Notes under the pieces: generated by a model
The model's database searches: none
What the model was told of the DNA's origin: nothing
What the model saw: the letters and a program-made list of their open reading frames with translations, nothing else
Shown here: one piece after another, positions 9,959 through 47,939 of the stretch
Numbering within the stretch: position 1 is the first letter of the stretch
Layout: each line of letters opens with the position of its first letter
Translations under genes and position numbers: made by a program
NCBI GenBank assembly: GCA_038247415.1
Contig: JBBRUX010000007.1
Span: 1 to 64,000, forward strand
From: Chitinivibrionales bacterium
GTDB lineage: Bacteria; Fibrobacterota; Chitinivibrionia; Chitinivibrionales; WJKA01
DNA: 64,000 nt
Direction: 5' to 3'

Positions 9959-9971
9959 TCTAAACTCCTGG

Positions 9972-12646: not shown

Positions 12647-12653
12647 AGGGCTC

Positions 12654-16200: not shown

Positions 16201-16725
16201 TGGGAGCTTGGGTTATCCGGCTTGCAATCAAAGCCGCATCTAACGCTTGGCGTTAATTCCCGTTTGTTTTATGTACAGCACGATCCAAAAACAGTATATG
16301 GGCAAGTGTTTTCGGCTCTTGACAGATCGCTTCAATTTACGCAGAGCATTCCAATACGCTCAGTGGTAACTGTGTCATTCAAAGAAGCACTAGGGTACGC
16401 AGAACAAAAAACAGAATTCGCAAGCGCATCTGGTTTATATGTGGCAATCGATCCAGAACTTGTTGTGCGTCCTAACGATAAAAGTTCGATAATTGGGTCG
16501 TATACCTTTGCATCAAATGGAGCTCGCGGCATAACCGATTTCAGATTAGCGCGCGGATACGCTTTCGGTTTTACGCAGGCATTCTCGATTCTCGCTAATG
16601 TAGATGTCTCCAAAAACGTCACGCTTACCGGCAGTTACCGAGGCGATTTGCCACCAGAAAACGCTCCTGGGTATCCTACGAATGGAACTCATGTGGTGGC
16701 TTTTGAGGTCAAAGCTTATTTTTAA
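13300..16725 (+). CDS. Large conserved hypothetical outer-membrane protein (1141 aa)
   Basis: Signal-peptide-like N-terminus, amphipathic beta-strand pattern, C-terminal Phe (EVKAYF), DYRVDYEQGFISF motif reminiscent of large FCB-group OM proteins. Confidence 0.6.
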   Translation: MQKFLKKFLSMQQNSYAFSILLILVVYCIPSSGRTVDTVIVGNGTNGPYLLGSDNIDSSSIRVAQGDLGSRIDYLFDPLTNSLIFSIPQDSLKSIPITYQTLLGSLVRTHYRYRYQTLDTATLNTFLRDTTLQHYNADAAENLQISGYKSIGIALGNSGQSNLTQALDVSIFGEIAPQTLLSAHLSDQGSSLDGVTREIGELDMIYITLAHPNFGVTVGDQYARWPSGGLLMGEKKIKGLSVSGKNEFLNGTIFGALSGGVSTVTTIVGRTGLQGPYFVRGNTGEPIVILSGTVNVTLNGKKLIEGEIADYRVDYEQGFISFSPRIPIADKDLISIQYEYKTSNYRRLLAGTTLGGTMPDSTISTQGVLWYESDDANHPLDLEISAADKDSLGLYGTKPWYKVMGIPIRGMKADSVASVNALYAKRDSAGIQIFVYHPSNIRFAPDSTYYQVTFRKITAGKGDYALLRRDCPAASSGVCYDVYEFVGSGLGDYTALSVFPTPARTVNGEVRIRYRPRSFLVADIDVAGQEKSENLFSSRSDASTTAGAGIIVLGAGSRRAQTTGSWAGIEGSVISEGFVRTAQSPSQRKSVWDDTSIAGQQGKSMGMSGYAGSSFGRIILGEVDGGRLYRNNSVATDRLGAYCLYTPLDSLSFSGDFKEFWHKDVPVPSRMQSFTLSTRIGARKIQSIVTLGDEWRVVDTFGGGHFVGSLNIVLPRIGLSQSISAERAMRGKLGYGALVDTGYRVGFEQRFDKNITREWNTSLFASHTVQKNGIGSPAVPTTLIDITSDLSRAALGLTTHQEYAITFERASLFVQEGRYVGAGFGDYTLDTLQALAPYVPKSGGSYSITNREWFDSSAVPTRVRKINASLSYSLDVPDSIISQGILSDLSYKGTYTVSEQVTDSSLSSLTFIPGVASIDTSLSAWLRYGSVSFRQEIIFEPSKSKDVRVLFSVRPFVMAQPLFREHGWELGLSGLQSKPHLTLGVNSRLFYVQHDPKTVYGQVFSALDRSLQFTQSIPIRSVVTVSFKEALGYAEQKTEFASASGLYVAIDPELVVRPNDKSSIIGSYTFASNGARGITDFRLARGYAFGFTQAFSILANVDVSKNVTLTGSYRGDLPPENAPGYPTNGTHVVAFEVKAYF

Positions 16726-16730
16726 TACCT

Positions 16731-18329: not shown

Positions 18330-19195
18330 AAATTGAACCATTGGAACGGGTGCTTCTGGACGGTTGCTTCCAATGCCTTTACAAATGATTGCAGCGCAGC
18401 ATTCGTTTCAAGGGGATCGCGCGAGCGGATGTGTTGTTGCAAAGACGCCGAAAGGGTGTAGTGTAACAATCCTGTTTTTACAATAAATATCGGGATTATT
18501 ACTGCACCCGTAGCCCGTGCAAGTGCAAAAGGGCCTTTGGGAAAGCTGGCCTCTTCTCCAAGAAACGCTACCTTTTGAGTTTGTCCACCAGCGGTTCTAT
18601 CGGCAAGCATGCATACAATCTCATTATTTCGCAGCGCATTCATGAGTTCTACAGAAGATCCAAACCCAGTTGGATCTAAAAAAATCGGGTGAATACTTCT
18701 TTTGTCAAATGCTTTTTTGTAAATTTTGCGCATATCATCGCGTTCGTTATCAAGCATAACCGGCCTAACAGGTACCTTAAGTTTATCTGCTAAAAGATTT
18801 CCTGCTATTTCTGTACTGCCGATATGTGCAGAAATAAGAATAACTCCTTTGCCTTCTTGCAACGCAGCCGAAATTCTCTCTTCGTGAATGCAGGTAAATC
18901 GAAAGGGCGGTTTATCCATTACCAAAAACGCGAGGCGATCTAAGAGCGCCATACCAAAAGTATAGCAGTGGCCCCAGCGCGAAGAAAAAGTGCATTTGAG
19001 ATTCAAATGGTGGCTGAGGGCATCGATTCCTGTTTTTAAAGATTTGTCAATAAGACAATATACAAAACTGACAGGAATTAAAAGTATATATGCTGGAAGC
19101 ACACCCACATGACGAATGAGAAATAGAAAGGCTGCAATGCCACGGCTGGGACCTTTTGAGGTTCCGGTCCATTGGGGTGAGGGGTTTGGGGTCAT
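18308..19195 (-). CDS. LpxL/LpxP-like lysophospholipid acyltransferase
   Basis: W.G.S.G N-terminus, SAHIGSTE (HxxxxE), LADR, FLGEEASFPKGPF, HPFQWFNFYNFW. Confidence 0.85.
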   Translation of the reverse strand: MTPNPSPQWTGTSKGPSRGIAAFLFLIRHVGVLPAYILLIPVSFVYCLIDKSLKTGIDALSHHLNLKCTFSSRWGHCYTFGMALLDRLAFLVMDKPPFRFTCIHEERISAALQEGKGVILISAHIGSTEIAGNLLADKLKVPVRPVMLDNERDDMRKIYKKAFDKRSIHPIFLDPTGFGSSVELMNALRNNEIVCMLADRTAGGQTQKVAFLGEEASFPKGPFALARATGAVIIPIFIVKTGLLHYTLSASLQQHIRSRDPLETNAALQSFVKALEATVQKHPFQWFNFYNFWSV

Positions 19196-21170: not shown

Positions 21171-23375
21171 ATGGCTACGGTGATGATTATTGCGCATGAC
21201 CCCAAAGAGTCCGTTCTCCTACGTCAAGTATTTCTAAAGCTCTCGATTAATGTGGTTACGTGCCTTCCAACCTATGCGAGCTACCTTAAAACACTGCAAT
21301 ATGCTCCCGATGTTGTGCTCATGGAAATGTCAGCTAACAGCAAAATGCATCTTAACTTTCTTAAAGTTATTCGGTCTAATAAAGGTATCGCTCAAATTCC
21401 TTTTGTTCTTTTTGGCCCCGAACAGGATCCTCGCGTGTGTGAGTTTTTAGGGGCTTTGGGGCTTACTACCTATTTTAAACGGCCTTTTGATATAAAAGAA
21501 ATGATTAAAGCTGCTTTTGCTTTAATTCAAGCAAAAAAACAGAAGAAAAAAGCCGAAATTAATAAAAATCAGGTTGCCGACGAGGAGCTCAAAAAACTTC
21601 TGTCTAAAAGCGTTTCGGTTCCTGCAAAGCTCGATATCATGGCAGCGCATATCGAAAATTTGCTTGCTTTTCCGGCAACGGTCGCAGCCATTCTCAAGAT
21701 ATCGCAGGATGAAAAGAGTGGAGCTTATGATCTAGCGCAAGTTATCAAGTCCGATCCCTCTGTGTCAACGGAAATCTTAAAAGTCGCTAACTCGGTTCAT
21801 TTTGGACGGGGTGGAAAACGTCTCGTGGAAATTAAAGATGCGGTTGTACGCATTGGCTTTTTGCAAACAAAAAGCGTGGCAATGTCGTTATCTGTTTTTA
21901 AGATCATGCAGGATAAGAATTATGCCACAGGCTTTAATCATACCGAATTCTGGCTTCATGCTGTGGGCGTTGCAATTATTGCAGAAAAGCTCGCTAAAAG
22001 CTCCAGGCTTGTTTCACCCGATCAGGCCTTCATGGCAGGGCTTGTGCATGATCTGGGGATAATGCTCTATAACGAATATTTTAATGCTATTTTTCTTGAC
22101 ATGCTTGATACAACAACAACCGATGGTGTGCGCTTTTCAGATTGTCAAATGGAAAAGGTTGGATTTACTCATAATCAACTTGTTGCGCGCATGCTTAGTG
22201 CCTGGAATTTTCCAGAAGAGTTTGTAGCAGATATAGAATATTTCTGCATGGCTTCGATACTTAACGAAAAAGCCCTCGCAGAACGTCCTACAGCCGTGAT
22301 TGTTACCGTGGCAGATATTATTGCAAAAAGCCTCGTTATCGGCAGAGAGGCCGATTGTTGCGTAGACCCTATTCCCGCTGGAGTTCTGGAAAGATTGGGT
22401 ATGCCATATGGTTTACTTAAAGAATTTGTAGCCTCTGTATTTGATGAAATCAATGTGTTTAATGGAATTTTGCATATCGATAAGAACCTATTCCCTATAG
22501 TCAACGATTCTATTATAGATGCGCCAACTGTTCAGTTGTTGTGTTATTCATTTTCAAGTGAGCAATACAATCCTGTAATCACTTACCTGCAATCGCATCG
22601 GTATAGTGTTACGCTTGCAAAAAGTCTCGACGACTTTTATCATAGCGAAAAGAAATTCCATTTGTATGTTCTCACCGATGCGAGCAATGCAGTAATCGGA
22701 GATATTGGCCAATTGGCCTCGCTTAAAACCATGCTCTATGCAAAAGATAAAGAAGAGGCGGTTTTGCACGATGCTAAGATGATGCTTTTTGATACCAAAA
22801 AAGAAATCGATACCACCTTACTTGGCGAAAATTCTGTTGTGTCGTGCTTTCCGGTCGATTTGCGAGCTATTGATATGGTTCTTGCGTGTATGATTTATGA
22901 TCAGCCCCTTATTTCGCCACATAACAAGTTCGGTGCCTTCAAACCCATGCGGACTATCACGGTAGGCGGAGCCCCGGTCGATATGAGAACCATTCTTATA
23001 GTAAATGATCACAGCTCATTTCAAAAACAGTGCACTCAGGTTGTTGCCTCGGCTCCTACATATCGGGTCGAAATTGCCAATGATGGATTAAAAGCCCAAA
23101 ATCTTGCCAAAACTGCCACGCGTGAAATTGCTCTGGTAATTATCGATGTGCATATTCCAATTGTATCGTGTGCCGAAGTAGTAAAAAGTATCAAGATGCT
23201 GCCTGGTCATAAACGTGCAAAATATCTGATAACCTTCGAATCTGCTGAAAAGAGCGAGCTGCTGCCGCTTGTGTCACTTGGCGTAACTAGTTTTATCCGG
23301 GAGAAAATCACCGATCAGGATCTCGGGCTTAAAATAATGGGGCTCCTCAATCTCCCCTCGCAGTCAAATGCATAA
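21171..23375 (+). CDS. HDOD domain protein with degenerate receiver domains
   Basis: N-terminal receiver-like fold (LMEMS at the phospho-Asp position), HDOD (LAFP, SDPSVSTEILKVANS, AGLVHDLG), C-terminal receiver-like domain (IIDVHIP). Confidence 0.85.
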   Translation: MATVMIIAHDPKESVLLRQVFLKLSINVVTCLPTYASYLKTLQYAPDVVLMEMSANSKMHLNFLKVIRSNKGIAQIPFVLFGPEQDPRVCEFLGALGLTTYFKRPFDIKEMIKAAFALIQAKKQKKKAEINKNQVADEELKKLLSKSVSVPAKLDIMAAHIENLLAFPATVAAILKISQDEKSGAYDLAQVIKSDPSVSTEILKVANSVHFGRGGKRLVEIKDAVVRIGFLQTKSVAMSLSVFKIMQDKNYATGFNHTEFWLHAVGVAIIAEKLAKSSRLVSPDQAFMAGLVHDLGIMLYNEYFNAIFLDMLDTTTTDGVRFSDCQMEKVGFTHNQLVARMLSAWNFPEEFVADIEYFCMASILNEKALAERPTAVIVTVADIIAKSLVIGREADCCVDPIPAGVLERLGMPYGLLKEFVASVFDEINVFNGILHIDKNLFPIVNDSIIDAPTVQLLCYSFSSEQYNPVITYLQSHRYSVTLAKSLDDFYHSEKKFHLYVLTDASNAVIGDIGQLASLKTMLYAKDKEEAVLHDAKMMLFDTKKEIDTTLLGENSVVSCFPVDLRAIDMVLACMIYDQPLISPHNKFGAFKPMRTITVGGAPVDMRTILIVNDHSSFQKQCTQVVASAPTYRVEIANDGLKAQNLAKTATREIALVIIDVHIPIVSCAEVVKSIKMLPGHKRAKYLITFESAEKSELLPLVSLGVTSFIREKITDQDLGLKIMGLLNLPSQSNA

Positions 23376-23679: not shown

Positions 23680-24888
23680 ATGACTAAGCGATCTTTGATT
23701 GTACAAGGCGCTGTTGTGCTATCGTGTTTTGTGGCGGGATGTGATTTCCCATATAAGCCAGTAGTTCAGACGCAGCCTGGTGTTGTTATAAAACCTGCAG
23801 CTCTCGTTGGCTTGCACCCCATTAATTCTGGGCGCCAAATTTGTAATGCCAACGCTTCAAACGATCCCGTTAATTTTAAAGCATGTATGCTTTTCTTGAA
23901 CCTAATTGGTCCAATGAAATTAAGCTTTGTGGATCCAGTCTGGGCAGCGGATTATGGACCCGATGCAGGAGAGCATGATCGCTTAACTATTGTTGATACG
24001 GGCAATGTTGTACGTTGGTATATGAAAGTTGGGAAAGACTATATTTCTGAAGATGCAATTCAAAAGCCCCGTTGGTCTACCCATCCAGATTTTATTTCTT
24101 TTAATGGCGAAGTCGATGAAGCAAATGGGTATGCAATTCGCATATCTGATAAAAAAGTTTTTAAATTTAATAATGGCAAATTTAATGGAGGATCAGCCGC
24201 CCATATCTGGGTCGATCCAGCGGTTCCTTCTGGAGCAATGTTAAATGTAGATCCCTCTGCTTTTCCCGCAACTGTTACCTATGATTCTGAAACGGGTATG
24301 GCAGATACAACAAGCATTAAGAGCTTTTTTGGAACACGGAACGTTAAAATAGTTTACTCAAAGGTTATCAATACTAAATTCGCACTGTATTATACCGATT
24401 ATTCTGAGGCGACTCCAACAGAACGTGCACTCGCAAAGCCACTTCAAAAGGAAATCTACAATTGTGAGAGCGCTCAAATATCACCTGATGTAAAGGGGGA
24501 TTGGATTATTTATAATTGCTACAAGGGCGTGAATGATCCAGTTGCTTATTATCAAAAGCTTGAGCCGAACTCTAAGCCCGCTGCTTTGAGCAATCTGCCA
24601 CGAAGTGCAGAACCACGATTTTTTAAAGATCCTGAAACAAACGAATTATTTGCAGTATATTGCAATGTTTTTGATGCCATCGATAAAGATTTGGGGCTTG
24701 AAATAGCAGACAATTCATTAGGAACTACCTATATTCGCTCCCTAAACCTTAATAGCGCAGTCACCTTTAATAGATTAAAAGAAGAGCGGGTACTTATTGG
24801 AATGCCATTCCGGGGAGGGATAACAGCAGATGGTGGCTTTTTGTGCACTGGCTATCAGTTCGGTTATATATATCATCTAAGCAATTAA
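23680..24888 (+). CDS. Lipoprotein, possible TolB-like beta-propeller
   Basis: Lipobox VAGC; PRWSTHP and QISPD repeats resembling PD40; AAGGA RBS before ATG 23680. Confidence 0.6.
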   Translation: MTKRSLIVQGAVVLSCFVAGCDFPYKPVVQTQPGVVIKPAALVGLHPINSGRQICNANASNDPVNFKACMLFLNLIGPMKLSFVDPVWAADYGPDAGEHDRLTIVDTGNVVRWYMKVGKDYISEDAIQKPRWSTHPDFISFNGEVDEANGYAIRISDKKVFKFNNGKFNGGSAAHIWVDPAVPSGAMLNVDPSAFPATVTYDSETGMADTTSIKSFFGTRNVKIVYSKVINTKFALYYTDYSEATPTERALAKPLQKEIYNCESAQISPDVKGDWIIYNCYKGVNDPVAYYQKLEPNSKPAALSNLPRSAEPRFFKDPETNELFAVYCNVFDAIDKDLGLEIADNSLGTTYIRSLNLNSAVTFNRLKEERVLIGMPFRGGITADGGFLCTGYQFGYIYHLSN

Positions 24889-24909
24889 ATTTATTAGGAG
24901 CTATAAATC

Positions 24910-26091
24910 ATGAAATTTAATGTTTTACAAAAGAAAGCGCTTGGCGGAATCGGTGCAGCCAGTTTAGTGGTGGCAGGCTTATTCTGTGCTGTTTCGCTTA
25001 TTCCTTCGGCACAAACAAAACTTTCCAATGCTGGTTTAATGCTTACACCATGGGCAACCGTTGGCGGTTGTGGTGCCGGCGGTTCTGGTGGTGGTGGCGG
25101 CGGTGCAAAATGGGTTGGTAAGGGTGTTGCAGGTGGTTTGGTTGATGTTCAGATTATGACAACCCCCTTAAGTGTCGGTCAAAATTTCCATAATTCATCC
25201 GTGTCAACACGGCTGAGCATGAAGCCACGCTGGGATACTCAAATTGGGCTTTCAATTCCTGTTGTGTCAAAAAGTGGTGAAGTTCAGCCAACAACACTTC
25301 TTGATCCAAAATTTTCTGTGACAACAGGTGGTATGGGCGATCTTGGCCTTGATATATCTCAAAGCTTGGGTATGGAAGGTCAGTATTCTGTTGGCCTTGC
25401 AGTAAGCCTACCAACAGCTCAATACAATATTAAGCGTGGGTCAGATAAAGTAAGCACCATTCTGCCTTCTGGTCTTCAAAAAGGATCTGGCCTTTACGGT
25501 GTATCATTGGCGCTTGGGTACACTAAAGACGTAAAAGATGGCATCTGGCTTGTAGATGCAGGGTATAGTCATCCGATGGCGATGCGTTTGTTTACTGGTG
25601 AAAATGAATTCAATAAAACTTGGTTTAAGTATAGCTATGCAGCAGATTCAACATTAAAGGATGATAAACGATTTTTCTATCGTTTTAAGCCTTATGGCGA
25701 GAACGACCTTGGGGATTATACTCCTCCAAGCGTCAGTTTAAGTTGCTATTTTGGCTATAAAGGAGTAGCAAATTATATGCATTCTTGGGGTGTAACTCTT
25801 GGGGCTCCTTTGGGTATAGCGTGGGTTCATGATGAGAGTGTACTTGGAACCGTTGTAAACTATAATCCTCGACCCGATACAGATCATAAAACATGGTCTG
25901 CTACGTTTAACTATGGTATAGAATTCAGCAGTGCAAAGTATCCTCTTTTTGCGGCTGTATCGCTTCCATTTCATGCAAAAAGTGCAGTTGCTGCGGATAA
26001 GAAGGCTCCAGGTTCCGAATTTGCTCCTGATTGGAAAGATTTTGGCCAACAGTGGAGCTTTTTTGTAGGCGTTAAATCAACCATGTTCTAA
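24910..26091 (+). CDS. Hypothetical outer-membrane beta-barrel protein with Gly-rich N-terminal segment
   Basis: Signal/TM segment, GGCGAGGSGGGGGG, alternating beta-strand pattern (GMGDLGLDI, LAVSLPT), terminal Phe; AGGAG RBS. Confidence 0.55.
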   Translation: MKFNVLQKKALGGIGAASLVVAGLFCAVSLIPSAQTKLSNAGLMLTPWATVGGCGAGGSGGGGGGAKWVGKGVAGGLVDVQIMTTPLSVGQNFHNSSVSTRLSMKPRWDTQIGLSIPVVSKSGEVQPTTLLDPKFSVTTGGMGDLGLDISQSLGMEGQYSVGLAVSLPTAQYNIKRGSDKVSTILPSGLQKGSGLYGVSLALGYTKDVKDGIWLVDAGYSHPMAMRLFTGENEFNKTWFKYSYAADSTLKDDKRFFYRFKPYGENDLGDYTPPSVSLSCYFGYKGVANYMHSWGVTLGAPLGIAWVHDESVLGTVVNYNPRPDTDHKTWSATFNYGIEFSSAKYPLFAAVSLPFHAKSAVAADKKAPGSEFAPDWKDFGQQWSFFVGVKSTMF

Positions 26092-26123
26092 CTACTTCTT
26101 TAACTATTATCAATGGAGGTCTC

Positions 26124-26525
26124 ATGAAAAAACGTTTTGGTTTTGCTGTATTGTGTGCTGTTGGTTTGAGTATAGGTCTTATGGCTTCTGGATGCAAGGA
26201 ACCACCACCACCACCACCTTCATGTGATACATGGGTTATAAAAAACCCTATGGCTGGTACAACATTAAAAGTTGGCCAAACTGTTAATATTGAGTGGTGT
26301 GTGCCAGCTTCTGTCGATTCTTTGGGTGCAAAGCGGGTTAATGTTTTGTTGGCAATAGGAAAAAATGTATATCAACTTAATCAAGAGCCCGTCGTCTACC
26401 CAACCAGAAGCTTTTCATTGACAATCGTAGATTCTCTAGTTGGCGATGTTTGCTATCTTAGAGTCAAAGATTATCAGCAACAGAACTTGGTTTCTGAAGA
26501 TTTGCAGATAAAAATCATTCCATAG
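26124..26525 (+). CDS. Small lipoprotein with polyproline linker and Ig-like domain
   Basis: Lipobox ASGC, EPPPPPPS, GQTVNIEW; GGAGG RBS. Confidence 0.7.
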   Translation: MKKRFGFAVLCAVGLSIGLMASGCKEPPPPPPSCDTWVIKNPMAGTTLKVGQTVNIEWCVPASVDSLGAKRVNVLLAIGKNVYQLNQEPVVYPTRSFSLTIVDSLVGDVCYLRVKDYQQQNLVSEDLQIKIIP

Positions 26526-26536
26526 TAAAATCAACC

Positions 26537-27640
26537 ATGCAAGCTCTTCCTCAACACTCCCTCCTCATCCTCGGTGCATCCGGCTTTATCGGATCGCACC
26601 TGGTGGAGCGGTTATTGTCAGAAACGTCTGTTTCTGTTGTGGGGATAGATGTTAATGTGGCAAAGGTGGGGGAGTATCTTGCGGATAGCAGATTTACGTA
26701 TGTTAATCTAGATATTTACGATGCAGAAAAAGTCCGCGCCTTTATCAAAGGTGCGGACGCTGTTGTTTCTTTGGCAGCGCTGTGCAACCCCTCGCTTTAC
26801 AATACAACACCCTTGGCTGTCATCGAATCGAATTTCACCCGGCCTATCGATATTGTTCGTATGTGTGCCGAAGAGAAAAAATGGTTAATACATTATTCTA
26901 CCTGTGAAGTATATGGGAAAACGGTTGCTCATGTGAGCAATGCCGATGTGCAAACGCAGGAAAATACTCTTTTGTCGGAATATTCAACACCGCTTATTAT
27001 GGGTCCTGTTTCTGCGCAACGATGGTGCTATGCAACTGCTAAGCAGTTGCTTGAGCGCACTATTTTTGCGTATGGTTTTGAGCAGGATCTTGCTTATACT
27101 ATAGTCAGACCGTTTAATTTTATTGGCCCTCGCATGGATTATATCCCGGGTATTGACGGAGAAGGGGTACCGCGCGTAATCGCTTGTTTTATGGATGCTC
27201 TTATGAGCGGAACGCCTTTGCAGCTTGTTGATGGTGGCATGAATAAGCGTACCTTTACAGCAATAGATGACGCAATAGATGCTCTGATGCTTATCCTTGC
27301 CAAACCTGCACATGCTCGCAACGAGATTTTCAATATAGCAAATCCTGCAAACGAGATAAGTATCTCGGCACTTGCCGAAAAAATGATTTACGCTTACGAA
27401 AAAGTACGCAGACCAGATATGCCGCTGCCTATGGGCGCTGTGCAGGTATCGTCGGAAGAATTTTATGGTGTTGGCTACGAAGATTCCGATAGACGTTTAG
27501 CAGATATTAAAAATGCACGAATAAAGCTTGGGTGGAATCCCTGCCGTGGACTCGACGAAGCGCTTGCAGAAACAGTTGCGTGGTATGTTAACCATTATGC
27601 CTTGGCAATGACCGAAAAAAAGGCACTTAATGCTAGGTGA
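26537..27640 (+). CDS. UDP-apiose/UDP-xylose synthase-like SDR (UDP-glucuronate decarboxylase family)
   Basis: GASGFIG; LAALCNPSLYNT, STCEVYGKT, QRWCYATAKQL, RPFNFIGPRMDYIPGIDG.GVPRV, EFYGVGYEDSDRR closely follow plant AXS/UAS motifs. Confidence 0.85.
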   Translation: MQALPQHSLLILGASGFIGSHLVERLLSETSVSVVGIDVNVAKVGEYLADSRFTYVNLDIYDAEKVRAFIKGADAVVSLAALCNPSLYNTTPLAVIESNFTRPIDIVRMCAEEKKWLIHYSTCEVYGKTVAHVSNADVQTQENTLLSEYSTPLIMGPVSAQRWCYATAKQLLERTIFAYGFEQDLAYTIVRPFNFIGPRMDYIPGIDGEGVPRVIACFMDALMSGTPLQLVDGGMNKRTFTAIDDAIDALMLILAKPAHARNEIFNIANPANEISISALAEKMIYAYEKVRRPDMPLPMGAVQVSSEEFYGVGYEDSDRRLADIKNARIKLGWNPCRGLDEALAETVAWYVNHYALAMTEKKALNAR

Positions 27641-28355
27641 TCTTGGTATTGTCATGCCGGCTTATAATGCCGGTAAGCTGATACCAGGGGTTTTAGCCCG
27701 GATACCCGAAACACTCTGGAAGCAGATTCGCTTTTTTGTAATTGTAAATGACGGGTCGAGCGATGATACCGCCGCGATTATCGAAGAATGTAAAGTGGGA
27801 CGCGACTGTATACACACGGTTCATTTTCATGAAAATCGCGGATACGGTGCTGCAGTGCGTGAAGGGTTGTTAAAATGCCGCGTTCACGATTGTTTTGCAG
27901 TGATATGTTTGCATGCAGATGGTCAGTATGCGCCCGAAGCTCTTGTTGATCTGCTTAGAGGAATTCGCGAAGATACGTACGATATTGTTCAAGGGTCCCG
28001 TATAGCATCGGGTACTGCCTTGTCGGGTGGGATGCCACTCTATAAATTTGTTGCGAATAGAATTTTAACGTTCTTTGAAAATTGTGTTTACGGTTTACGA
28101 TTAACCGATTATCATAGTGGATATCTTGCCTATTCACGTAAAGCGCTCGAAATACTTCCCTTCGAAAGATTTAGTTCAACGTTTGAATTTGATGTTGAAG
28201 TAATTGCTACGGCGCGTTCGCATGGTTTACGTATAGGCGAAGTTCCCGTCCCAACACGGTATGCAGGAGAAAAATCCCATGTGCCTTCGATTCAATACGG
28301 TTTTAGGGTTCTGGGTGTTATGGTTAAATACCTTCGTGGGAAGTACAAACCATGA
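27630..28355 (+). CDS. GT2 glycosyltransferase, DPM1/ArnC-like polyprenol-phosphate type
   Basis: MPAYN, VNDGSSD, NRGYGAA, HADGQY, GSR, LTDYHSGY. Confidence 0.88.
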   Translation: MLGDLGIVMPAYNAGKLIPGVLARIPETLWKQIRFFVIVNDGSSDDTAAIIEECKVGRDCIHTVHFHENRGYGAAVREGLLKCRVHDCFAVICLHADGQYAPEALVDLLRGIREDTYDIVQGSRIASGTALSGGMPLYKFVANRILTFFENCVYGLRLTDYHSGYLAYSRKALEILPFERFSSTFEFDVEVIATARSHGLRIGEVPVPTRYAGEKSHVPSIQYGFRVLGVMVKYLRGKYKP

Positions 28356-29257
28356 TCCTTGTAACGGGTGGTTGCGGAATTATGGGGAGCGCATTGGTAA
28401 AGCTTCTGTGCAATAAGGGTCATGCGGTACGAGTTGTTACGCTTGCGGGTGATCCTTTTGTAACGCGGTTGGATGGTCTTACGGTGGATATTCGTTTTGC
28501 AGATATTAGCAATAAAGAGTCGCTTTCGGGAATTTGCAATGGGATAACTCTGGTGTATCACCTTGCGGCTATCATCTTAACAAAAAACGAATTGCTCTTT
28601 GAAAGTATAAATGCGCAGGGAACACGAAATGTTGTGGATATTGCGATTCAATCAGGTGTAAGTCGTTTTGTGTATGTTTCATCTGCTTCCGTAACGTATA
28701 CGTTTCCAACAGCCTACGCACGTTCAAAAATTGCAGGCGAGGAAGCCGTGGTGAAAAGTGGCTTGACCTATACCATAATAAGGCCAACGCTTGTGTACGA
28801 TGATCGCGGAGGTGAGGAATTTAATCGGTTTCTGGCGTATTTGCTAAAGTATCCAATTGTTCCTTTTATTGGTTCTGGCAAAGCACTCAAGCGACCTGTG
28901 CATGTCAATGAGATTATTAATGGGCTTGCTGCAGTAGCGACCTCGGAACATGCGAATAATAAAGTGTATAATTTTTCTGGCGCGCAAGCTCTTTCAATTA
29001 AGCAATTTGCTCGCCTCTGTTTACAGGTAGCAGGCTCTGGAAATAAACCAATTGTATCGTTGCCCGTTTTTGTGTGCAGATTGATTGCGTGCGTGATGCA
29101 GCTGGTATATAAGAATCCTCCACTTTCCAAGCAAATGATTGCGGGGATAATTCAGGATGCCGACTTAGATCCCGGAAGTGCTATCAAAGATTGTGGTTAT
29201 TCGCCCACCCGCGTAACTGATATGCTTCCACACTGTTTTCCACGGAAAATATCGTAA
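28352..29257 (+). CDS. NAD-dependent epimerase/dehydratase family SDR
   Basis: ILVTGGCGIMG, HLAA, YARSK (YxxxK), RPTLVY; ATGA overlap with the GT2 gene. Confidence 0.85.
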   Translation: MILVTGGCGIMGSALVKLLCNKGHAVRVVTLAGDPFVTRLDGLTVDIRFADISNKESLSGICNGITLVYHLAAIILTKNELLFESINAQGTRNVVDIAIQSGVSRFVYVSSASVTYTFPTAYARSKIAGEEAVVKSGLTYTIIRPTLVYDDRGGEEFNRFLAYLLKYPIVPFIGSGKALKRPVHVNEIINGLAAVATSEHANNKVYNFSGAQALSIKQFARLCLQVAGSGNKPIVSLPVFVCRLIACVMQLVYKNPPLSKQMIAGIIQDADLDPGSAIKDCGYSPTRVTDMLPHCFPRKIS

Positions 29258-29319
29258 TAAAATGATTTTTTGCTGTTGTAGTGTTGTAGTAACTTTTTCA
29301 ATTTTTCAGGGGGTTGTGT

Positions 29320-29808
29320 ATGATTAAATCCAGGTTAATTCTTGGAGTCGCCATGCTCACAGGGGCCTGTGTGTTTTCGGCGTTTGCCGCAGATGCAGCA
29401 GCAAAGCCAGCAGCCAAGACGGCGGTAAAGCCTGCCGCTGCAAAAGTGGCCGATACGCTTGTTATCGAGGGCCGGGTGCTTGAGATTCCAGGGAAGTTTC
29501 CACCAAACGACTTGTACAACTATGTGTACATCATGAAGTATCGAGTTATTAAAGTTGTCAAAGGAGTATATGCCGAAAAGGATATTCTTGTTGGGCACTA
29601 TAATCCGCTCATTCCACGGTCTCAGGTTAAAGACGCAAAAATGAAAAAGTATGTTGCAGGTAATGTAGAAAAGTTTGAAGTTGGTGCCAAGCACAAACTC
29701 ACTCTTATCAAGTCTATTGGCACAGTATGGCAGGATGCTATCGAAGATGAATACTTTGATGCAACTGGAGACAAATATTTTGCACTTAAAGCGGATATCG
29801 CTCAGTAA
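29320..29808 (+). CDS. Exported hypothetical protein
   Basis: Signal peptide ending AFA, Ala/Lys/Pro linker, compact beta domain; in line with the MBOAT gene. Confidence 0.7.
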   Translation: MIKSRLILGVAMLTGACVFSAFAADAAAKPAAKTAVKPAAAKVADTLVIEGRVLEIPGKFPPNDLYNYVYIMKYRVIKVVKGVYAEKDILVGHYNPLIPRSQVKDAKMKKYVAGNVEKFEVGAKHKLTLIKSIGTVWQDAIEDEYFDATGDKYFALKADIAQ

Positions 29809-29827
29809 CCCGAAAGGATGATGTCAA

Positions 29828-31252
29828 ATGGTTTTTTCGTCACACATATTCATCTTCTACTTCATGCCGATTTTCTTCTTGATTTATTATCTCTTGCCGT
29901 TTAATTGGAAAGGGTTCTATCTCAAGAACAGTTTTATCACCATATCAAGTTATATTTTCTACGGCTGGCTTGTTCCTTGGTTTGTTGTGCTTATGCTTTT
30001 GTCTACTACGTGGGATTATTTTTGCGGCTTAGTTATCACCAAGCCGGGACAAGTCCAGTGGAAACGAAAAGCTGCGCTGCTTACAGCAATTATTGGTGAT
30101 ATGGGACTTCTTGTATTTTACAAGTACTACATGTTCACAATGGAAAATGTCAATGCCATGCTTGGGCTTTTGGGCATGGGTCCCGATATGTTCCCTATTA
30201 TGAATGTTATGCTTCCATCTGGTATTTCTTTTTATACCTTTGTTGCGCTATCCTATACGATCGACCTTTATCGTGGCGATGCAAAACAATCTCGAAATTT
30301 TCCAACATTCAGTTGCTTTATTGGATTGTTCCCGCATCTTATTGCTGGTCCTATTATCCGGTATCAATCGGTTGCCGATCAGCTTGGCGAACGTACTCAT
30401 ACTATTGATAAGTTTACCAGTGGTGCTGCAATATTTTGTTTGGGTATGGCCAAGAAAATTATTTTGGCAAACTCTGCAGGTCAAATTGCCGATGCTGTGT
30501 TTACAGCAGATAACCCGGGTGTTCTCAATGCATGGTGGGGTATTTTAGGGTATCACTTCCAGATTTATTTCGATTTTTGCGGCTACTCAGATATGGCCGT
30601 AGGGTTGGCTCGCATGCTGGGTATTGAGTTTATTAAAAACTTCAATGCACCGTATATGGCAACAAATATTACGGTGTTCTGGCGAAGGTGGCACATATCG
30701 CTTTCTGCGTTTATTCGGGATTATCTCTATATCCCACTCGGTGGAAACCGGTTTGGCACAACGCGTACCTATTTCAATTTGGTGCTTACCTTTTTCCTCT
30801 GCGGTTTGTGGCATGGTGCTAAAATGACGTTTGTCATTTGGGGTGTGTATCAGGGTGTGTTCCTTATCCTTGAACGTCTCAGCGGCAAGAAGACCGTGTA
30901 TGGTTTTCTTCCAAACTTCATGCAAATTATAATAACGAATATTATAGTGATGTTTGGATGGGTCATGTTCCGGGCTCCTTCTATCGATCAGGCATTAGCC
31001 TATTGGGGGTCAATGGTTGGAATGGTTCAAGCCTCGGTAGCAGCGCCTATTTTGTCGTCTGAAATCTTTTCGCCACGGCATATTTTTGAAATCGCAGTGT
31101 GCGCATTGGCAACATTTCAGCCTATACAGGCGCATGATTGGGTTAAAAATCTGTCAAAGCCAAAACTTGTGGTTTGCAGTCTATTGTTTTTGTATTCAAT
31201 CATTGTGATGTTTACTCAGACATATAACCCATTCCTTTACTTTCAGTTCTAA
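29828..31252 (+). CDS. MBOAT O-acyltransferase, AlgI/PatA type
   Basis: MVFSS, FYKY, GISFYTF, FPHLIAGPI, QIYFDFCGYSDMA, FWRRWHISLS, GLWHGA, PFLYFQF. Confidence 0.95.
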   Translation: MVFSSHIFIFYFMPIFFLIYYLLPFNWKGFYLKNSFITISSYIFYGWLVPWFVVLMLLSTTWDYFCGLVITKPGQVQWKRKAALLTAIIGDMGLLVFYKYYMFTMENVNAMLGLLGMGPDMFPIMNVMLPSGISFYTFVALSYTIDLYRGDAKQSRNFPTFSCFIGLFPHLIAGPIIRYQSVADQLGERTHTIDKFTSGAAIFCLGMAKKIILANSAGQIADAVFTADNPGVLNAWWGILGYHFQIYFDFCGYSDMAVGLARMLGIEFIKNFNAPYMATNITVFWRRWHISLSAFIRDYLYIPLGGNRFGTTRTYFNLVLTFFLCGLWHGAKMTFVIWGVYQGVFLILERLSGKKTVYGFLPNFMQIIITNIIVMFGWVMFRAPSIDQALAYWGSMVGMVQASVAAPILSSEIFSPRHIFEIAVCALATFQPIQAHDWVKNLSKPKLVVCSLLFLYSIIVMFTQTYNPFLYFQF

Positions 31253-31269
31253 CATAAGGATTTTTCGTC

Positions 31270-32937
31270 ATGGAAAGAAAAGCTCAAATAATATTCGTAG
31301 TGTTCTTTTGCTTCGTAATGGGCTTTGTGCCTATTGCGCAAGCAGTATACGAACTTAAAAAGATCAAGCGCATCCAGGCATTCGAAATGATCGAAGATGC
31401 GACCGTTGTTCCGTATCAGCGAGCTAAAACAATGGCTGCTGCAGCCCAGCGTCTTGACGTACAAGCGCAGGCACTCTCTGCTGCGGTAACAAAAGCTGCT
31501 GGCGATTCGGTGTTTGATGGAAGTGCCTTTTCTACGCAAACCGACGAAATCGGGTTCGCACTGGGTGAACTCCAAAAGAGTGCTGAAACGATCAATCGTT
31601 ATGTAAAAGAAAAAGCAACTACTCCAGAGATGCATGAGATTATAGTTCTTCAAAAAGGACTCGATTCCCTATCGAAGGCAATCTCAAATGCTTCAACAGC
31701 ACAAGAGGCTCTAGCAGTATCAACTGCATATGAAGTGCGTGCAAAGGCACTGGTTGCAAAACATCCCAAGCCAACCACAGCATCGGCATTTCCTCTTATA
31801 GTAAAGAATTTGCCAAATATGTTTTGGGATGCGGTGTATTTGCGTCCCTACGAAAAGGAAATGGAAAATACTTCTATTTTCGCAGTTGCCGCGCGGCCGG
31901 TCATGCTTTTTACGCGCTATGCAATTTTTCAGGATTTGGGTGATAAGGCTCTTTTAGGACAGAAAAACTGGTTCTTTTATAAGCCAGACGTTCAGTTCCT
32001 TTCTAAGCCTTATATCCTTGCTGCGCGCAATTATTTGCCAGAACACAGCAACGTTGCGGATCCTAACCTCTTATCTGTTAAAGAGGAGCCAATTAAAAAG
32101 ATCGCCCTCTTCCGCGATGAATTAAAGAGACTGGGAATAGATCTTATCGTTGTTGTTCTTCCTACTAAGGCGTCAGTGTATCCAGAAGTGCTTAATCCTA
32201 AAATTTCAAAGGATCTGTCGGGGAAATTGAGCCACTCTACAAAATCAATTGCAGAATTACGTGCGATGGGTGTAGAATGCGTCGATCTCTTTTCCGAATT
32301 TGCAAAGGAACGCCAGAACGATGAACGTGCGGGAGACTCGCTTTATTTGGCAAAAGACACTCACTGGCGTGGGCGCGGTGTGCGTTGCGCTGCTAAGGCT
32401 GTTGCAGATCGAATAAAGCAGTATTCTTGGTATACTCCCGGAACAACTACTTTTGAGATCGATACCATTATGGTAGACCGTGTTGGAGATATTGGATCTA
32501 TGACAAAAATCACTGATGTCAAGTTTCATGACCTTCGCACAATTTTCCCCGTTGAAGCTACTAAATGCTATCAGGTTTACAAAGTTGAAAATGATTCAGC
32601 AGGTAATCAGATTTCCCGTGCTTTGTATAGAGATGATTATGCTCGCTCCCAAGTATTGCTTTTGGGCGATAGCTTCTCGCGTATCTATCAAACAGATGCT
32701 CCTATGAGCGCAGGATGGATTTCTCATATTGCTGCTGAACTTGAGCAACCAATTGCCTCTATCGTTTCGGATGGTGGAGCATCGACACTTGTTCGTGAGA
32801 CACTTGCCCGTAAGGTAAATGTATTACGCAATAAGAAAGTGGTTGTATGGGAATTTGTAGAACGCGATTTCAGATATGGTGCCGAAGGTTGGAAAGATAT
32901 TAAGCTCGATCTGAAGCAGACTGCATCTGCAGAATAA
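31270..32937 (+). CDS. AlgJ/AlgX-type SGNH-like O-acetyltransferase, membrane anchored
   Basis: N-terminal TM, G..NWFFY, PTKASVYPE, KDTHW (DxH) and LLGDSF catalytic motifs, VWEFVER. Confidence 0.85.
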   Translation: MERKAQIIFVVFFCFVMGFVPIAQAVYELKKIKRIQAFEMIEDATVVPYQRAKTMAAAAQRLDVQAQALSAAVTKAAGDSVFDGSAFSTQTDEIGFALGELQKSAETINRYVKEKATTPEMHEIIVLQKGLDSLSKAISNASTAQEALAVSTAYEVRAKALVAKHPKPTTASAFPLIVKNLPNMFWDAVYLRPYEKEMENTSIFAVAARPVMLFTRYAIFQDLGDKALLGQKNWFFYKPDVQFLSKPYILAARNYLPEHSNVADPNLLSVKEEPIKKIALFRDELKRLGIDLIVVVLPTKASVYPEVLNPKISKDLSGKLSHSTKSIAELRAMGVECVDLFSEFAKERQNDERAGDSLYLAKDTHWRGRGVRCAAKAVADRIKQYSWYTPGTTTFEIDTIMVDRVGDIGSMTKITDVKFHDLRTIFPVEATKCYQVYKVENDSAGNQISRALYRDDYARSQVLLLGDSFSRIYQTDAPMSAGWISHIAAELEQPIASIVSDGGASTLVRETLARKVNVLRNKKVVVWEFVERDFRYGAEGWKDIKLDLKQTASAE

Positions 32938-33027
32938 CAGCTCTTTTGTTCTTCACATGCTTTGTGCATGTGGAAAATGATGCGTAAGAGGTTTCGTATG
33001 ATATATTTTCTGAACATCTGAATAACT

Positions 33028-33067
33028 GCGCGCAATCTTTTTAAAAGATTGCGCGCTTTGCTTTTTT
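33028..33067 (+). terminator. Hairpin with T tail inside the operon (terminator or attenuator)
   Basis: GCGCGCAATCTTTT / AAAAGATTGCGCGC inverted repeat at 33028-33056 followed by TTTGCTTTTTT. Confidence 0.5.
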
Positions 33068-33083
33068 ACCAAAAGGAGTAACT

Positions 33084-35090
33084 ATGGGACTTCATCGGAA
33101 TCTGGTTCTTGGCATTGGTATATATGCAACCGTTGCAACTGCAGCTGTTACACCGGTGTATACTGAACTTGCACCTAAATTTATTCTTAACAAGTCGCGA
33201 GCAACGGTTCGCGAAATTGCTAAGCCAACTATGGCAAATCTCGATTTTACTGCATACGATAAAAATCCTGTGCGCCTCGATTTTAAAGCTCAAAAGCCAA
33301 AGATGCCTGCTGCAAAGGTTACCTTTGCAGACCTAGGCTACGATGGCGCACTTTCTGATGTTGTTGACAGCGTTGGAAAAACACCTCTTACCGAAGCAGA
33401 ACTCTCTAATCCTCTTGCATGGAAGCCATTAAGTGAAAGGCTCTGGAAAGCAATAAAAAATCCATTCTTTGCCGAAGTTACCGGCAAGATCGAAGGTAAG
33501 AAATGGGCAGATCCTGCGATACCAAAACCGTATCAGGAAATTGCAGTTGCCTATGTGCATAAAACAACCGCCGGTGTTGAACTTTGGGTACGCATCGATT
33601 TTCCTGCTTGGTCAAAATTTTTGGCGCCCCGTGGCGCCGATGAAAATAAGGACGGTTTTTGCGAAGTGTACGGAAAGCTTTCTCTTGATAAACTTGATAA
33701 AGAAGTATGGGCAAAAGCTCTTGCTTATATCGAACAAGATTATTGTGTAAAGGTTCTTTCTAAAGACGAAATTACCGATTGGGTTACAATTCTTGCATCG
33801 TATTGGTATCCTGCTTTTAACACAGATATCATTGATATGACCAATGAAACTGCATGGCCCATAAAAGATACCGATAAAGACGTAGCTAAAGCACTTAAAG
33901 GTTTTAGCGTTAAGAATCCAACTGCAGTTGTAAAGGGAAATCCTTTTGGCAAGCTCATGTATAATGTGTATGTTGTTAAGGAACAAGATGGAGCAGTTGC
34001 CCCTGTTGTCCACGAGCAAGCCGCAGCTGCGCCCGTTGCTGCAATTATTGACAAAAGGGCAGATACCGCAGTTTCTGCGAATATGAAGGCTAATTCTACG
34101 CGCCTTGCTGCCGAAATTAAGCCATTTATAACCTATGAGGCTTGGGCAAAACAAAATGCTGCCGGGCTTGGTAATCTTAAAACCTTTTTAGGAACTATTC
34201 CAGCAGAGCAGATGGGTTTTGAAGGTAAAGACAATTGGGTATTCTTTCGTAAATCATGTGACTATATTTTGGGTGGCGATCTGAATGCTCAGGCAAAAGA
34301 TAAAAATCCCATACCTTCGCTTGTTGAGCTTAAAAAGTTCCTTGCATCAAAGGGTGTAAATCTTTTGTTTGTTCCCGTACCCAATAAAGAAGAAGTTTAC
34401 TACGATAAGCTTCCTTGTACCACGATCCCCGACGCTGCGGCAGTGTATAATCCTTATTCTCGCAAGTTTATCAAGGATGCTCAGGATGCTGGTATCGAAG
34501 TAATTGACTTGCTTCCACTGTTTCTTGCAGCAAAAGCAAAAGACAAGGACTCAAAAGAAAAGGTGTATCAGTTACATGATACCCATTGGACAGATAGGGG
34601 ATTGGAGATTGCTGCAACAGCTATTGCAGACCGCGTAAAACAGTATGGCTGGTATAGTTCCATTACGCCTGCTAAATATTCGATTGTCGATACCACTTTT
34701 GATCGTCAGGGTGATATTGTTGATAAATTGCCCGATGCGCTTAAGTCTAAATATGCACCTGTCAATCTTAAGGGTGCAATGGTCCGCGCTGCCGATGGAA
34801 AGCCCTATAAGGGTGCTGCAACAGACCCAATCATTCTAATGGGTGATAGTTTTACGGGCGTTTTTGAATCGGTCGACTGCAAGAGCGCTGGCGTTGGTGC
34901 TCATATTGCAGCTAACTCTGGTGTTGGTGTTGATATCATCACCAGCTGGGGCGGTGGCCCTGGTGTTCGCAACAAGATGCTTCGTGCTCGTTCTACAGCT
35001 CTCGGGCAGAAGCGCCTGGTTATTTACATGATGGTAGCTCGCGATTTGTATAATTATTCTCAGTCGTGGGAACCGCTTAAGCCAGAATAG
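33084..35090 (+). CDS. AlgX/AlgJ-type SGNH-like O-acetyltransferase with large uncharacterised N-terminal domain
   Basis: Signal peptide; GKDNWVFF, PVPNKEEVY, HDTHW, LMGDSF motifs in the C-terminal half. Confidence 0.83.
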   Translation: MGLHRNLVLGIGIYATVATAAVTPVYTELAPKFILNKSRATVREIAKPTMANLDFTAYDKNPVRLDFKAQKPKMPAAKVTFADLGYDGALSDVVDSVGKTPLTEAELSNPLAWKPLSERLWKAIKNPFFAEVTGKIEGKKWADPAIPKPYQEIAVAYVHKTTAGVELWVRIDFPAWSKFLAPRGADENKDGFCEVYGKLSLDKLDKEVWAKALAYIEQDYCVKVLSKDEITDWVTILASYWYPAFNTDIIDMTNETAWPIKDTDKDVAKALKGFSVKNPTAVVKGNPFGKLMYNVYVVKEQDGAVAPVVHEQAAAAPVAAIIDKRADTAVSANMKANSTRLAAEIKPFITYEAWAKQNAAGLGNLKTFLGTIPAEQMGFEGKDNWVFFRKSCDYILGGDLNAQAKDKNPIPSLVELKKFLASKGVNLLFVPVPNKEEVYYDKLPCTTIPDAAAVYNPYSRKFIKDAQDAGIEVIDLLPLFLAAKAKDKDSKEKVYQLHDTHWTDRGLEIAATAIADRVKQYGWYSSITPAKYSIVDTTFDRQGDIVDKLPDALKSKYAPVNLKGAMVRAADGKPYKGAATDPIILMGDSFTGVFESVDCKSAGVGAHIAANSGVGVDIITSWGGGPGVRNKMLRARSTALGQKRLVIYMMVARDLYNYSQSWEPLKPE

Positions 35091-35132
35091 TTTTTTGTTT
35101 TTTTTTGGTTTGAGTTTGAAATGTTTTTGTAA

Positions 35133-35171
35133 AGGGTGTCCACTAGAATTTCTCGTGGGCACCTTTTTTTT
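35133..35171 (+). terminator. Rho-independent terminator
   Basis: AGGGTGTCCAC / GTGGGCACCT stem (with G-U pairs) followed by a T run, just after the cluster's last gene. Confidence 0.7.
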
Positions 35172-35408
35172 CGCCCTTGGCTGGTTCTGGTATGTCAGTT
35201 CTAATGGATATCCAATTTTTCCCCACTGCTCGCCCTTCCTCAAAAATAAGCATAGCGTACAATACTTCGGCAGCTTGGCATCCTCAATATCTGGCAAAAA
35301 GATGCGTCTGGATATACATTAAATAATGCGTTATCTAATGGTTTAAGAATTTTGGCGCTTCATACAACGTACTACCACTTAAAACCGCCTTGAAAAGAGG
35401 TTCAAACT

Positions 35409-36170
35409 ATGTTTGTTCAACGCAGTGCTTCCTTAAAGACTGGGATACTTGTATGTTCTATGCTCTCGTCGCTGTTTGCCTACGAATCATCGCTTAATAA
35501 TCTTGTTGTTCCGTCAACAATTGAATCTCCGAGCCTAGAAGCTACATTTGAGCATCGATTTGGGCGTGCTCTTGGCATGTCGGCACATGGTGGCAGCATT
35601 ATGGGAGGCGCAAATATCGGGCTTGGTATGCGAGGAGAAATCTGGAAGGGGATTGGTGCGACCTTTTACTATACCTATCGGAATAATGAATTTGATGGAG
35701 CTGTTACCTATTCTCAAAGTGTAGATTTTTTGCAATTAGATATATTGGGTTCGATACATGCATTTACGTATCAAAAAAGTGAATGGAACAATTTCAGGGC
35801 AACAAACGCTGCGTATGATATTGCGCTTCAATCGAAACCATTGCTCTTTGATCATCTCGTCCTCAATGCAGGCATGAATTATGATGGCTATAATGCTCAT
35901 GTAGGATTAGGTCTTGGAACTACAGTACAAATTATAGAAAAAGTTGCGCTTGTGGGAGAACTTTTCCCATTAATTCCAAACGCCTCCAATGTAAATATTG
36001 GGTCAAAACCATGTTTTTCGGCAGGTATTAAATACGATACCTACGGACATCATTTTAAATTGTCGGTTGCAAATTCCACAGAGCTTGGTCAACGGCATGC
36101 AATGCTTGGCACGAATTCCAAAAATGTGTACTTCGGTTTTTCGATTCAACGACACGTTTCTTTTGAGTAA
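35409..36170 (+). CDS. Outer-membrane beta-barrel protein (DUF5777-like)
   Basis: Signal peptide, FEHRFG, GGANIGLG, TYGHHFKL...N, YFGFSIQR. Confidence 0.65.
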   Translation: MFVQRSASLKTGILVCSMLSSLFAYESSLNNLVVPSTIESPSLEATFEHRFGRALGMSAHGGSIMGGANIGLGMRGEIWKGIGATFYYTYRNNEFDGAVTYSQSVDFLQLDILGSIHAFTYQKSEWNNFRATNAAYDIALQSKPLLFDHLVLNAGMNYDGYNAHVGLGLGTTVQIIEKVALVGELFPLIPNASNVNIGSKPCFSAGIKYDTYGHHFKLSVANSTELGQRHAMLGTNSKNVYFGFSIQRHVSFE

Positions 36171-47916: not shown

Positions 47917-47939
47917 TAGTGTGCAGATTTGGCTGAGAG

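Follow-up and report, generated by a model that had tools for sequence, protein, structure and literature searches.

We analyzed a 64,000-nucleotide stretch of a Chitinivibrionales genome from the phylum Fibrobacterota (NCBI GenBank assembly GCA_038247415.1, contig JBBRUX010000007.1, positions 1 to 64,000 of the forward strand; hereafter the window), in which an initial annotation, made from the sequence alone, had proposed that ten genes at positions 23680-35090 (g1 to g10) form a system for an apiose-containing, acetylated surface glycan. These genes very probably act together, along with further genes at a second locus of the same genome. Our leading reading, held tentatively and at a little under an even chance, is that about 13 genes form a single system for tailoring the envelope, in which apiose is made, loaded onto a lipid and transferred by a glycosyltransferase of the GT-C fold, and the product is acylated and delivered. 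The earlier proposal is partly supported, by gene co-occurrence and by the finding of a linked GT-C. The system itself is larger, in genes and in loci, than had been noted. Genomes, contigs, loci and families of our data set are cited, where needed, by handles beginning with G, C, L and f.

Conservation of the gene cluster

All ten open reading frames (ORFs) were found on the + strand over the annotated span, with gaps of about 60 bp or less or with overlaps, the sole exception being 146 bp upstream of g10. Matches in Pfam and NCBIfam place g4 and g6 among the short-chain dehydrogenases/reductases (SDRs), g5 in glycosyltransferase family 2 (GT2), g8 in the MBOAT (membrane-bound O-acyltransferase) family and g9 and g10 in ALGX, so that the SDR, GT2, MBOAT and AlgJ/AlgX-type assignments made at the outset hold. 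Neither database had a match for g1, g2, g3 or g7. The GC content of the run resembles that of the remaining window.

A close g4 orthologue is present in 24 of 40 relatives. When loci were cut around g4, g1 to g10 stood in the same order in 11 of 20 and matched until the contig end in 5 more, a count in which the divergent g3 is not always detected and one locus is frameshifted; two of the remaining loci contain g4 to g10 only, and two are broken up. Across 296 genomes of the phylum, g7 was found in 186, g4 in 179 and g12, a gene of the second locus, in 172; all three occur in 155 genomes, none in 100 and a mixture in 41, figures that are overstated because kin are not independent and that describe a pattern rather than a statistical test. 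The genome G253, which is marked as unpublished, was used in these tallies and nowhere else. Among the 172 good genomes the counts are 115 for g7, 113 for g2, 110 for g12 and 109 for g4, and of five such genomes scored as lacking g4, re-testing revealed it in four, all but G264.

The association persists where gene order does not. All five of the complete or near-complete distant genomes that were tested carry g2, g4, g5, g6, g8, g9 and g10. One genome (G281) has the gene set in a single reshuffled cluster with flipped orientations, and another (G189) has the same genes scattered; the pentose genes and the acylation genes are split in G032, G274 and G189, and in some genomes g7 immediately adjoins g4 (L047, L105). 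Records named Fibrobacter contain g7-g8. Separate occurrence of the SDR/GT2 pair and the algI/J/X-like set in related genomes had been named as grounds for rejecting the proposal; instead they occur together and are clustered phylum-wide, even after shuffling. Synteny and co-occurrence rule out a chance clustering of g1 to g10.

We also examined the genes that recur beside the cluster in 134 loci. These are a PD40 propeller, g11 (35 loci), a tetratricopeptide repeat (TPR) protein, g13 (20 loci), and g12 (13 loci, from 9 distinct genomes). The other recurrent neighbors are housekeeping genes, plus one gene of major facilitator superfamily (MFS) type in 8 loci.

A linked putative GT-C transferase

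According to the initial annotation, the locus held no polymerase, flippase or GT-C. That stands for the locus itself, but contig C14 of this genome carries the gene for a linked GT-C, g12, in a second operon made up of g13, g12 and g11 (G000:C14:32608-36464; L240:7609-11465). The product of g12 is a membrane protein of 555 aa with no match in Pfam and no sequence match in the PDB. Its AlphaFold model (pLDDT 94.6, pTM 0.93) matches STT3 with an E value of 1.9e-8 and superposes on the oligosaccharyltransferase (OST) structure OST-B with a Z score of 24.7 (root-mean-square deviation (rmsd) 3.9, 467 residues aligned), followed by PglB (22.9), AglB (19.8), Pmt4 (19.3), DPY19 (18.7) and ArnT (16.9). 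When the C-terminal domain was compared alone, it matched the globular domain of AglB (Z 9.0, rmsd 2.7, 111 aligned) and that of PglB (Z 7.6). The modeled protein has a GT-C fold with an OST-type C-terminal globular domain. A conserved segment, N-x-x-R-Y-G-G, may correspond in position to the WWDYG motif of OSTs. Many g12 homologues have fused TPRs, and the TPR gene g13 is the upstream neighbor of g12.

The link to the pentose genes is physical in other families, where 14 genomes have g12 at a distance of 78-745 bp from g4 and on the strand opposite to it, pairs that were picked by eye among the matches listed and do not represent a rate. The idea that the sugar is activated on a lipid gains strongly, because the GT-C that had been missing is found and is linked to g4; the identity of the sugar, apiose as against xylose or an epimer, stays a matter of deduction. 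A relay from the GT2 through a lipid to the GT-C is, in our judgment, likely.

Proposed pentose synthesis and lipid loading

The gene g4 (26537..27640, + strand) encodes a UDP-apiose-synthase-like SDR. It matches Arabidopsis AXS1 at an E value of 1e-95, ArnA at 1e-64 and UDP-xylose synthase (UXS) at 1e-20, with bit scores of 324, 221 and 77, respectively (466, 316 and 229 via a profile). The motifs GxxGxxG, S-T-x-E and YxxxK are present. Cysteine residues have a functional role in AXS enzymes. Cys83 of g4 aligns with the AXS1 cysteine (Cys100-type) that is mutated in structure 6h0p. Of 20 alignment rows, 19 retain this residue; the second AXS cysteine (STCE) occurs in only 5 of the 20. Cys83 is replaced by Ala in ArnA and in UDP-4-keto-pentose/xylose synthase (U4kpxs), and a protein from Alloyangia resembling bacterial UDP-apiose/xylose synthase (bUAS) keeps the Cys. 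In a tree built without plant AXS and without the three assayed bUAS, whose base is unresolved and whose run did not converge, ArnA and U4kpxs form a separate clade with 100/100 support and g4 falls outside it. An identification of g4 as ArnA is ruled out, as the formyltransferase domain is lacking and the score is far lower than for AXS1. Judged by sequence, g4 probably makes UDP-apiose.

Two genes of the UDP-glucose-dehydrogenase family in the genome can supply the precursor of g4. The genome also has a separate gene at C1:72921 that we take, from its motifs, to be UXS-like, and because of this gene xylose would not require g4. UDP-apiose is reported to be unstable, being degraded within 4 h (PMC6193724). 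Such a short life fits the overlap of g4 with the next gene, g5 (27630..28355, + strand), which begins before the g4 stop. The product of g5 is a DPM1/GtrB/ArnC-like GT2 of 241 aa (PF00535, E 2e-24). Its best NCBIfam matches, PpgS, AglJ and dolichyl-P hexose transferase, all fall below their cut-offs, its PDB matches to GtrB, ArnC and DPMS are weak (E 7e-6 to 3e-5), and hydropathy indicated no transmembrane helix. The usual DxD is H-x-D in 18 of 19 rows.

An atypical NDUFA9-like SDR of 301 aa follows, g6 (28352..29257, + strand), with its best PDB matches among complex I 39 kDa-type subunits (E 9e-18) and with GxxGxxG and YxxSK in 18 of 18 rows. By analogy with Citrobacter O2, in which an SDR edits a lipid-linked pentose (PMC11127046), g6 may edit the lipid-linked pentose here.

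Two observations on g4 homologues lie outside this genome. The orthologues in G108, G110, G115 and G164 each align as two segments of a single open frame, which implies an in-frame insertion of roughly 20-55 aa near residue 249. On a Halomarina plasmid (L243:5974-7050), an archaeal gene resembling UDP-apiose/xylose synthase (UAS), with 43% identity to g4, is part of a glycosylation cluster that also encodes GT2s and a flippase.

The predicted acylation module

The gene g7 (29320..29808, + strand) encodes an exported protein of 162 aa from an uncharacterized family, with no Pfam or PDB match. It stands immediately 5' of g8 in 71 of 80 loci, and another 3 are interrupted by contig ends. Because of this position directly before g8, we consider g7 a candidate accessory of acylation of the AlgF/WssG kind, by analogy of place, as it has no sequence link to AlgF. 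Its family extends past Fibrobacterota (233 representatives, one cluster member being named Planctomycetes), and its Atlas clusters are chiefly Verrucomicrobiota or Bacteroidota. A complex prediction for g8, residues 185-548 of g9 and g7 scored 0.23 against a mark of 0.32 and was uninformative either way.

The gene g8 (29828..31252, + strand) encodes an AlgI/PatA-type MBOAT of 474 aa (PF03062) that ends in a hexapeptide of the acyl-shuttle type, FXYXXF at the MBOAT C-terminus (PMC12148441). His329 and the terminal F-L-Y-F-Q-F are invariant in 27 rows, and 108 of 110 distinct g8 homologues have the shuttle ending. The SGNH partners of such enzymes are defined by a triad of DxH and Ser in AlgJ order (PMC4148444). 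One partner is g9 (31270..32937, + strand), a membrane-anchored AlgJ-like SGNH acyltransferase of 555 aa (PF16822, E 5e-26) with a hydrophobic stretch at residues 5-23 of its N-terminus and with Asp363, His365 and Ser468 invariant in 28 rows. The other is g10 (33084..35090, + strand), an AlgX-like SGNH acyltransferase of 668 aa in which Asp499, His501 and Ser589 are invariant in 10 rows; its model matches AlgJ (Z 18.0), AlgX (17.2) and PatB1 (11.3). AlgX bears a C-terminal binding module, whereas g10 has a long N-terminal region instead, conserved over about 330 aa, over which whole-model fold searches, which barely probe such a part, matched nothing. To judge from their sequences, g8 to g10 carry all the catalytic and acyl-shuttle motifs of MBOAT/SGNH acyltransferases.

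Metagenome loci of the g7 family were long enough to read (>6 kb) in 37 of 80 cases, and these have a core in the order propeller (36 loci), g7 (37), MBOAT (33) and AlgJ-like protein (32). Outside Fibrobacterota, in loci L162-L239, the cassette takes the form double-propeller, g7, MBOAT and AlgJ, often flanked by a protein of about 930 aa without a Pfam match, and a gene of glycoside hydrolase family 39 (GH39) lies nearby in 13 of 37. In some families of the phylum a SASA-family (PF03629) acetylesterase gene sits within the cluster (11 loci, including L045, L046, L047, L056 and L146), whose product is a possible de-acetylating partner. Records titled Oscillospiraceae, Alistipes and Senegalimassilia (L116, L118, L124) contain g7-g8 with Fibrobacter/Hallerella-like scores; these contigs are probably mis-binned.

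Probable envelope proteins

The remaining genes of the run lie at its start. A lipoprotein of 402 aa is encoded by g1 (23680..24888, + strand), probably a TolB-like beta-propeller (TolB profile, E 2.8e-4, a weak match); Cys21 is invariant among 17 aligned homologues. In three of these 17 (L027, L038, L050) the propeller shows a natural circular permutation. The product of g2 (24910..26091, + strand), 393 aa, is probably an outer-membrane barrel of the FapF or Phenol_MetA_deg (PF13557) kind, on a weak FapF profile match (E 9e-4). Its Atlas row stands at 0.96, with PF13557 on 22% of members, and the alignment has a conserved Gly-rich, Cys-containing N-terminal segment and a terminal Phe. A 12-stranded barrel of the COG4313/FapF type is a candidate fold for g2. 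The small lipoprotein-like g3 (26124..26525, + strand; 133 aa) belongs to no family, and neither it nor three homologues had a Pfam match; its divergent homologues retain a place upstream of g4 or g7. At the second locus, the TPR protein g13 shows, in addition, a weak transglutaminase-like match.

Transcription signals

That the run ends in a terminator, as first annotated, agrees with an intrinsic-terminator-like hairpin and U-tract at about 35131-35173 on the + strand (-21.1 kcal/mol, z -4.4, 0 of 200 shuffles), which is not in the list of the consensus terminator scan, a scan with a loop limit of 8. However, a second hairpin with a U-tract, equally strong, separates g9 from g10 within the run (33028-33056, + strand; 13 bp stem, -20.7 kcal/mol, z -5.4). 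With this internal terminator-like signal ahead of g10, it is doubtful that the ten genes share one transcript here. In relatives, g10 is normally coupled to g9, because in 13 of 20 loci no more than 60 bp separates the two, which leaves scant room for a hairpin. A promoter scan gave results at chance level (36 versus 37.5).

Proposed mechanism and alternatives

In the mechanism that we propose, g4 would convert UDP-glucuronate to UDP-apiose, with UDP-xylose as a co-product, a step strongly suggested by its family. The overlapping g5 would fix the short-lived UDP-apiose as polyprenyl-phosphate-apiose, and g6 might conceivably edit the lipid-linked pentose. After outward flipping by some flippase, g12, OST-like in its modeled fold, would move the pentose onto a periplasmic acceptor. 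An acyl group, probably acetyl, would pass by way of the C-terminal Tyr of g8 to g9 and g10, with g7 as an accessory, and g9 and g10, in which the motifs are observed, would acylate the same product as g12. The proteins g1, g11, g3, g13 and g2 could scaffold these steps and carry the product as far as the outer membrane or across it, which is the most speculative part of the scheme. The acceptor is most likely a surface glycan or glycolipid made elsewhere. The transferred sugar would be apiose, not xylose or an epimer, acylation and glycosylation would fall on the same molecule, and the barrel g2 would export the product.

Several observations weigh against this mechanism. Besides the kinship that inflates the co-occurrence counts, the genome G264 contains g7 and g4 was not found in it. 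Neither g4 nor g2 occurs in any of the 37 metagenome loci longer than 6 kb, and the acylation core is therefore the more broadly distributed part and need not have the pentose genes close by. A common transcript is doubtful, as described above, and the tree of g4 has the limits given with it. The protein also narrowly clears the NCBI model for U4kpxs, PRK11908 (298, cut-off 294). UAS enzymes yield both sugars, with about 1.7 times as much apiose as xylose (PMC5607165), and the GT2 adjoining the X. pisi UAS used UDP-xylose (PMC6193724). Finally, the neighbors in the 134 loci include no recurring flippase, nor any recurring backbone polymerase or processive synthase, unlinked synthases lying outside that screen. 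The same genome has one GtrA gene, on contig C66, apart from the system loci.

Some of these observations would suit the same machine with a different sugar: the lipid might carry xylose or an epimer, if g4 were a 4-keto-pentose/xylose synthase or g5 picked UDP-xylose, with g6 as the reductase or epimerase. We regard this as unlikely, since g4 is about 100 bits nearer AXS1 than ArnA, the AXS-type Cys of 19 of 20 rows is lacking in the separate ArnA/U4kpxs clade, and the genome has its own UXS-like gene. The acceptor, too, could differ. If g12, like DPY19 or PMT, glycosylates protein with a monosaccharide, g13 may present its substrates and acylation may cap the glycan. The best structural matches of g12 are GT-Cs with protein acceptors (STT3, PglB, AglB, Pmt, DPY19), its C-terminal domain matches the globular domains of AglB and PglB, the fused TPRs of its homologues and the place of g13 would suit substrate presentation, and one of the titles referenced by PMC3079729 concerns a cellulose-binding glycoprotein from F. 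succinogenes. However, a likeness of fold proves no function, the matches also include ArnT, Aft and ALG enzymes (Z 12-17), whose acceptors are lipids or glycans, and known MBOAT/SGNH pairs act on polysaccharides (PMC12148441), so that we think a protein acceptor unlikely. The full form of this idea, in which Fibrobacterota including rumen Fibrobacter use lipid-linked apiose and an OST-like GT-C to apiosylate periplasmic or surface proteins that are then acylated and displayed through a dedicated barrel, is rather improbable.

It is also conceivable that two independent modules share a neighborhood, pentose transfer (g4 to g6 and g12) and acylation (g7 to g10), each with its own target, such as peptidoglycan or a different polymer. 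In the 37 distant loci the acylation core occurs by itself, many Fibrobacter loci contain g7-g8 with no other system gene inside 10 kb, the modules are split in the three genomes named above, and there is the internal terminator. Against this, the two are jointly present or absent phylum-wide and are interleaved in several differing orders, including those in which g7 adjoins g4, which makes independence quite unlikely. As for an alginate-like, synthase-dependent exopolysaccharide, the AlgI/J/X-like set with a TPR protein and a barrel recalls alginate, and a cellulose-synthase-like GT2 that might serve as polymerase lies 20 kb off (window 55423-56937), beside TPR genes and a gene of glycoside hydrolase family 26 (GH26). 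Yet this GT2 is found in just 16 of 121 sampled genomes and in none of the 57 from family f13, although the system is common in that family, and it occurs where system markers were not found (for example G048, G035, G071, G072). Such a lack of co-occurrence largely rules it out as the polymer source, and an alginate-like scheme is very improbable.

Relation to known systems

The apiose-transferring machine proposed here works like three-component glycosylation joined to an AlgIJX-type module. With the three-component systems (GtrA/GtrB/GtrII; Citrobacter ORF12-15, PMC11127046; ArnC/ArnT) it has in common a GT-C and an accessory SDR, along with a putative GT2 polyprenyl-P-sugar synthase and a predicted pentose donor. 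It differs from them in that its GT-C is nearest STT3/PglB, a linked flippase was not found, and an MBOAT/two-SGNH module, propellers and a barrel are added. In the Citrobacter pentofuranose system the donor comes from phosphoribosyl pyrophosphate (PRPP), whereas here it would come from a UDP-apiose-synthase-like enzyme and a GT2; the main text of that paper (PMC11127046) mentions neither 'apiose' nor 'Fibrobacter'. The g12 model superposes on STT3/PglB/AglB and DPY19 across 450-470 residues, C-terminal globular domain included, but it differs from the OSTs in its low identity (11-14%), in the lack of Pfam or PDB sequence matches and in a partner GT2 that predicts a monosaccharide donor.

The acylation genes share with AlgI/AlgJ/AlgF/AlgX, WssHIFG, PatA/PatB and PatA1/PatB1 (PMC12148441, PMC4148444, bioRxiv 2023.07.25.550544) the MBOAT His, the FXYXXF shuttle and a small exported neighbor, as well as a pair of SGNH proteins, one of them anchored, that have DxH and Ser triads; unlike in the alginate system, homologues of Alg8/44, AlgK and AlgE were not detected in the loci. 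The nearest precedents for the sugar are the bUAS and the X. pisi apiose operon (PMC5607165, PMC6193724), in which a UAS-like enzyme likewise has a GT2 next to it. These papers describe a soluble GT90 apiosyltransferase, whereas here the gene set is conserved, includes a GT-C proposed to act in a lipid relay, and has g4 in 179 of 296 genomes. Only eight bUAS are reported in PMC5607165, in operons that are not conserved; this paper and PMC6193724 describe apiose in bacteria as a rarity for which neither a conserved operon nor an acceptor is known. In literature searched by title and abstract, with most subscription journals outside its coverage (including older work on F. succinogenes envelope structure), we found no description of this system, no apiose work on Fibrobacter, and no account of a lipid-linked apiose pathway or of protein apiosylation.

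A UAS-like gene in about 60% of the genomes of one phylum, within a conserved machine, offers candidates for the lipid-carrier step, the transferase, the acylation module and the outlet, and the question of what bacteria attach apiose to, and why, becomes testable in cultured Fibrobacter. Fibrobacter matters for the digestion of fiber in the rumen, and its envelope chemistry is poorly explained. Two uncharacterized families, the STT3-like GT-C (g12) and the MBOAT-linked accessory (g7), gain a functional context, and a stable lipid-linked apiose donor would serve glycoengineering. Apiose is a plant-type sugar, and Fibrobacterota are cellulose degraders; if the protein-apiosylation reading is true, degraders of the plant cell wall would be coated with a plant-wall sugar.

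Other features of the window

Directly upstream of the run is a response regulator-HDOD-response regulator gene (21171-23375, + strand), which was not found beside the cluster in the loci of 20 relatives, and past the terminator lies a DUF5777 barrel gene (35409-36170, + strand) that is not conserved next to the cluster in those loci. The cellulose-synthase-like GT2 belongs to a glycan operon at 51832-60662 (- strand), together with GH26, TPR, two sugar dehydratase/epimerase, nucleotidyltransferase and two unassigned ORFs. At 6428-12730 (- strand), genes for TssF, TssG and a ClpV-like ATPase precede one of the Asp/Glu racemase family, which resembles part of a type VI secretion cluster. The region 13300-19195 holds an ORF of 1141 aa without a Pfam match and then an aromatic amino acid lyase, with a lipid A acyltransferase-family gene on the opposite strand. 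An MbnP/MauG-type di-haem pair is encoded at 47131-48968 (+ strand).

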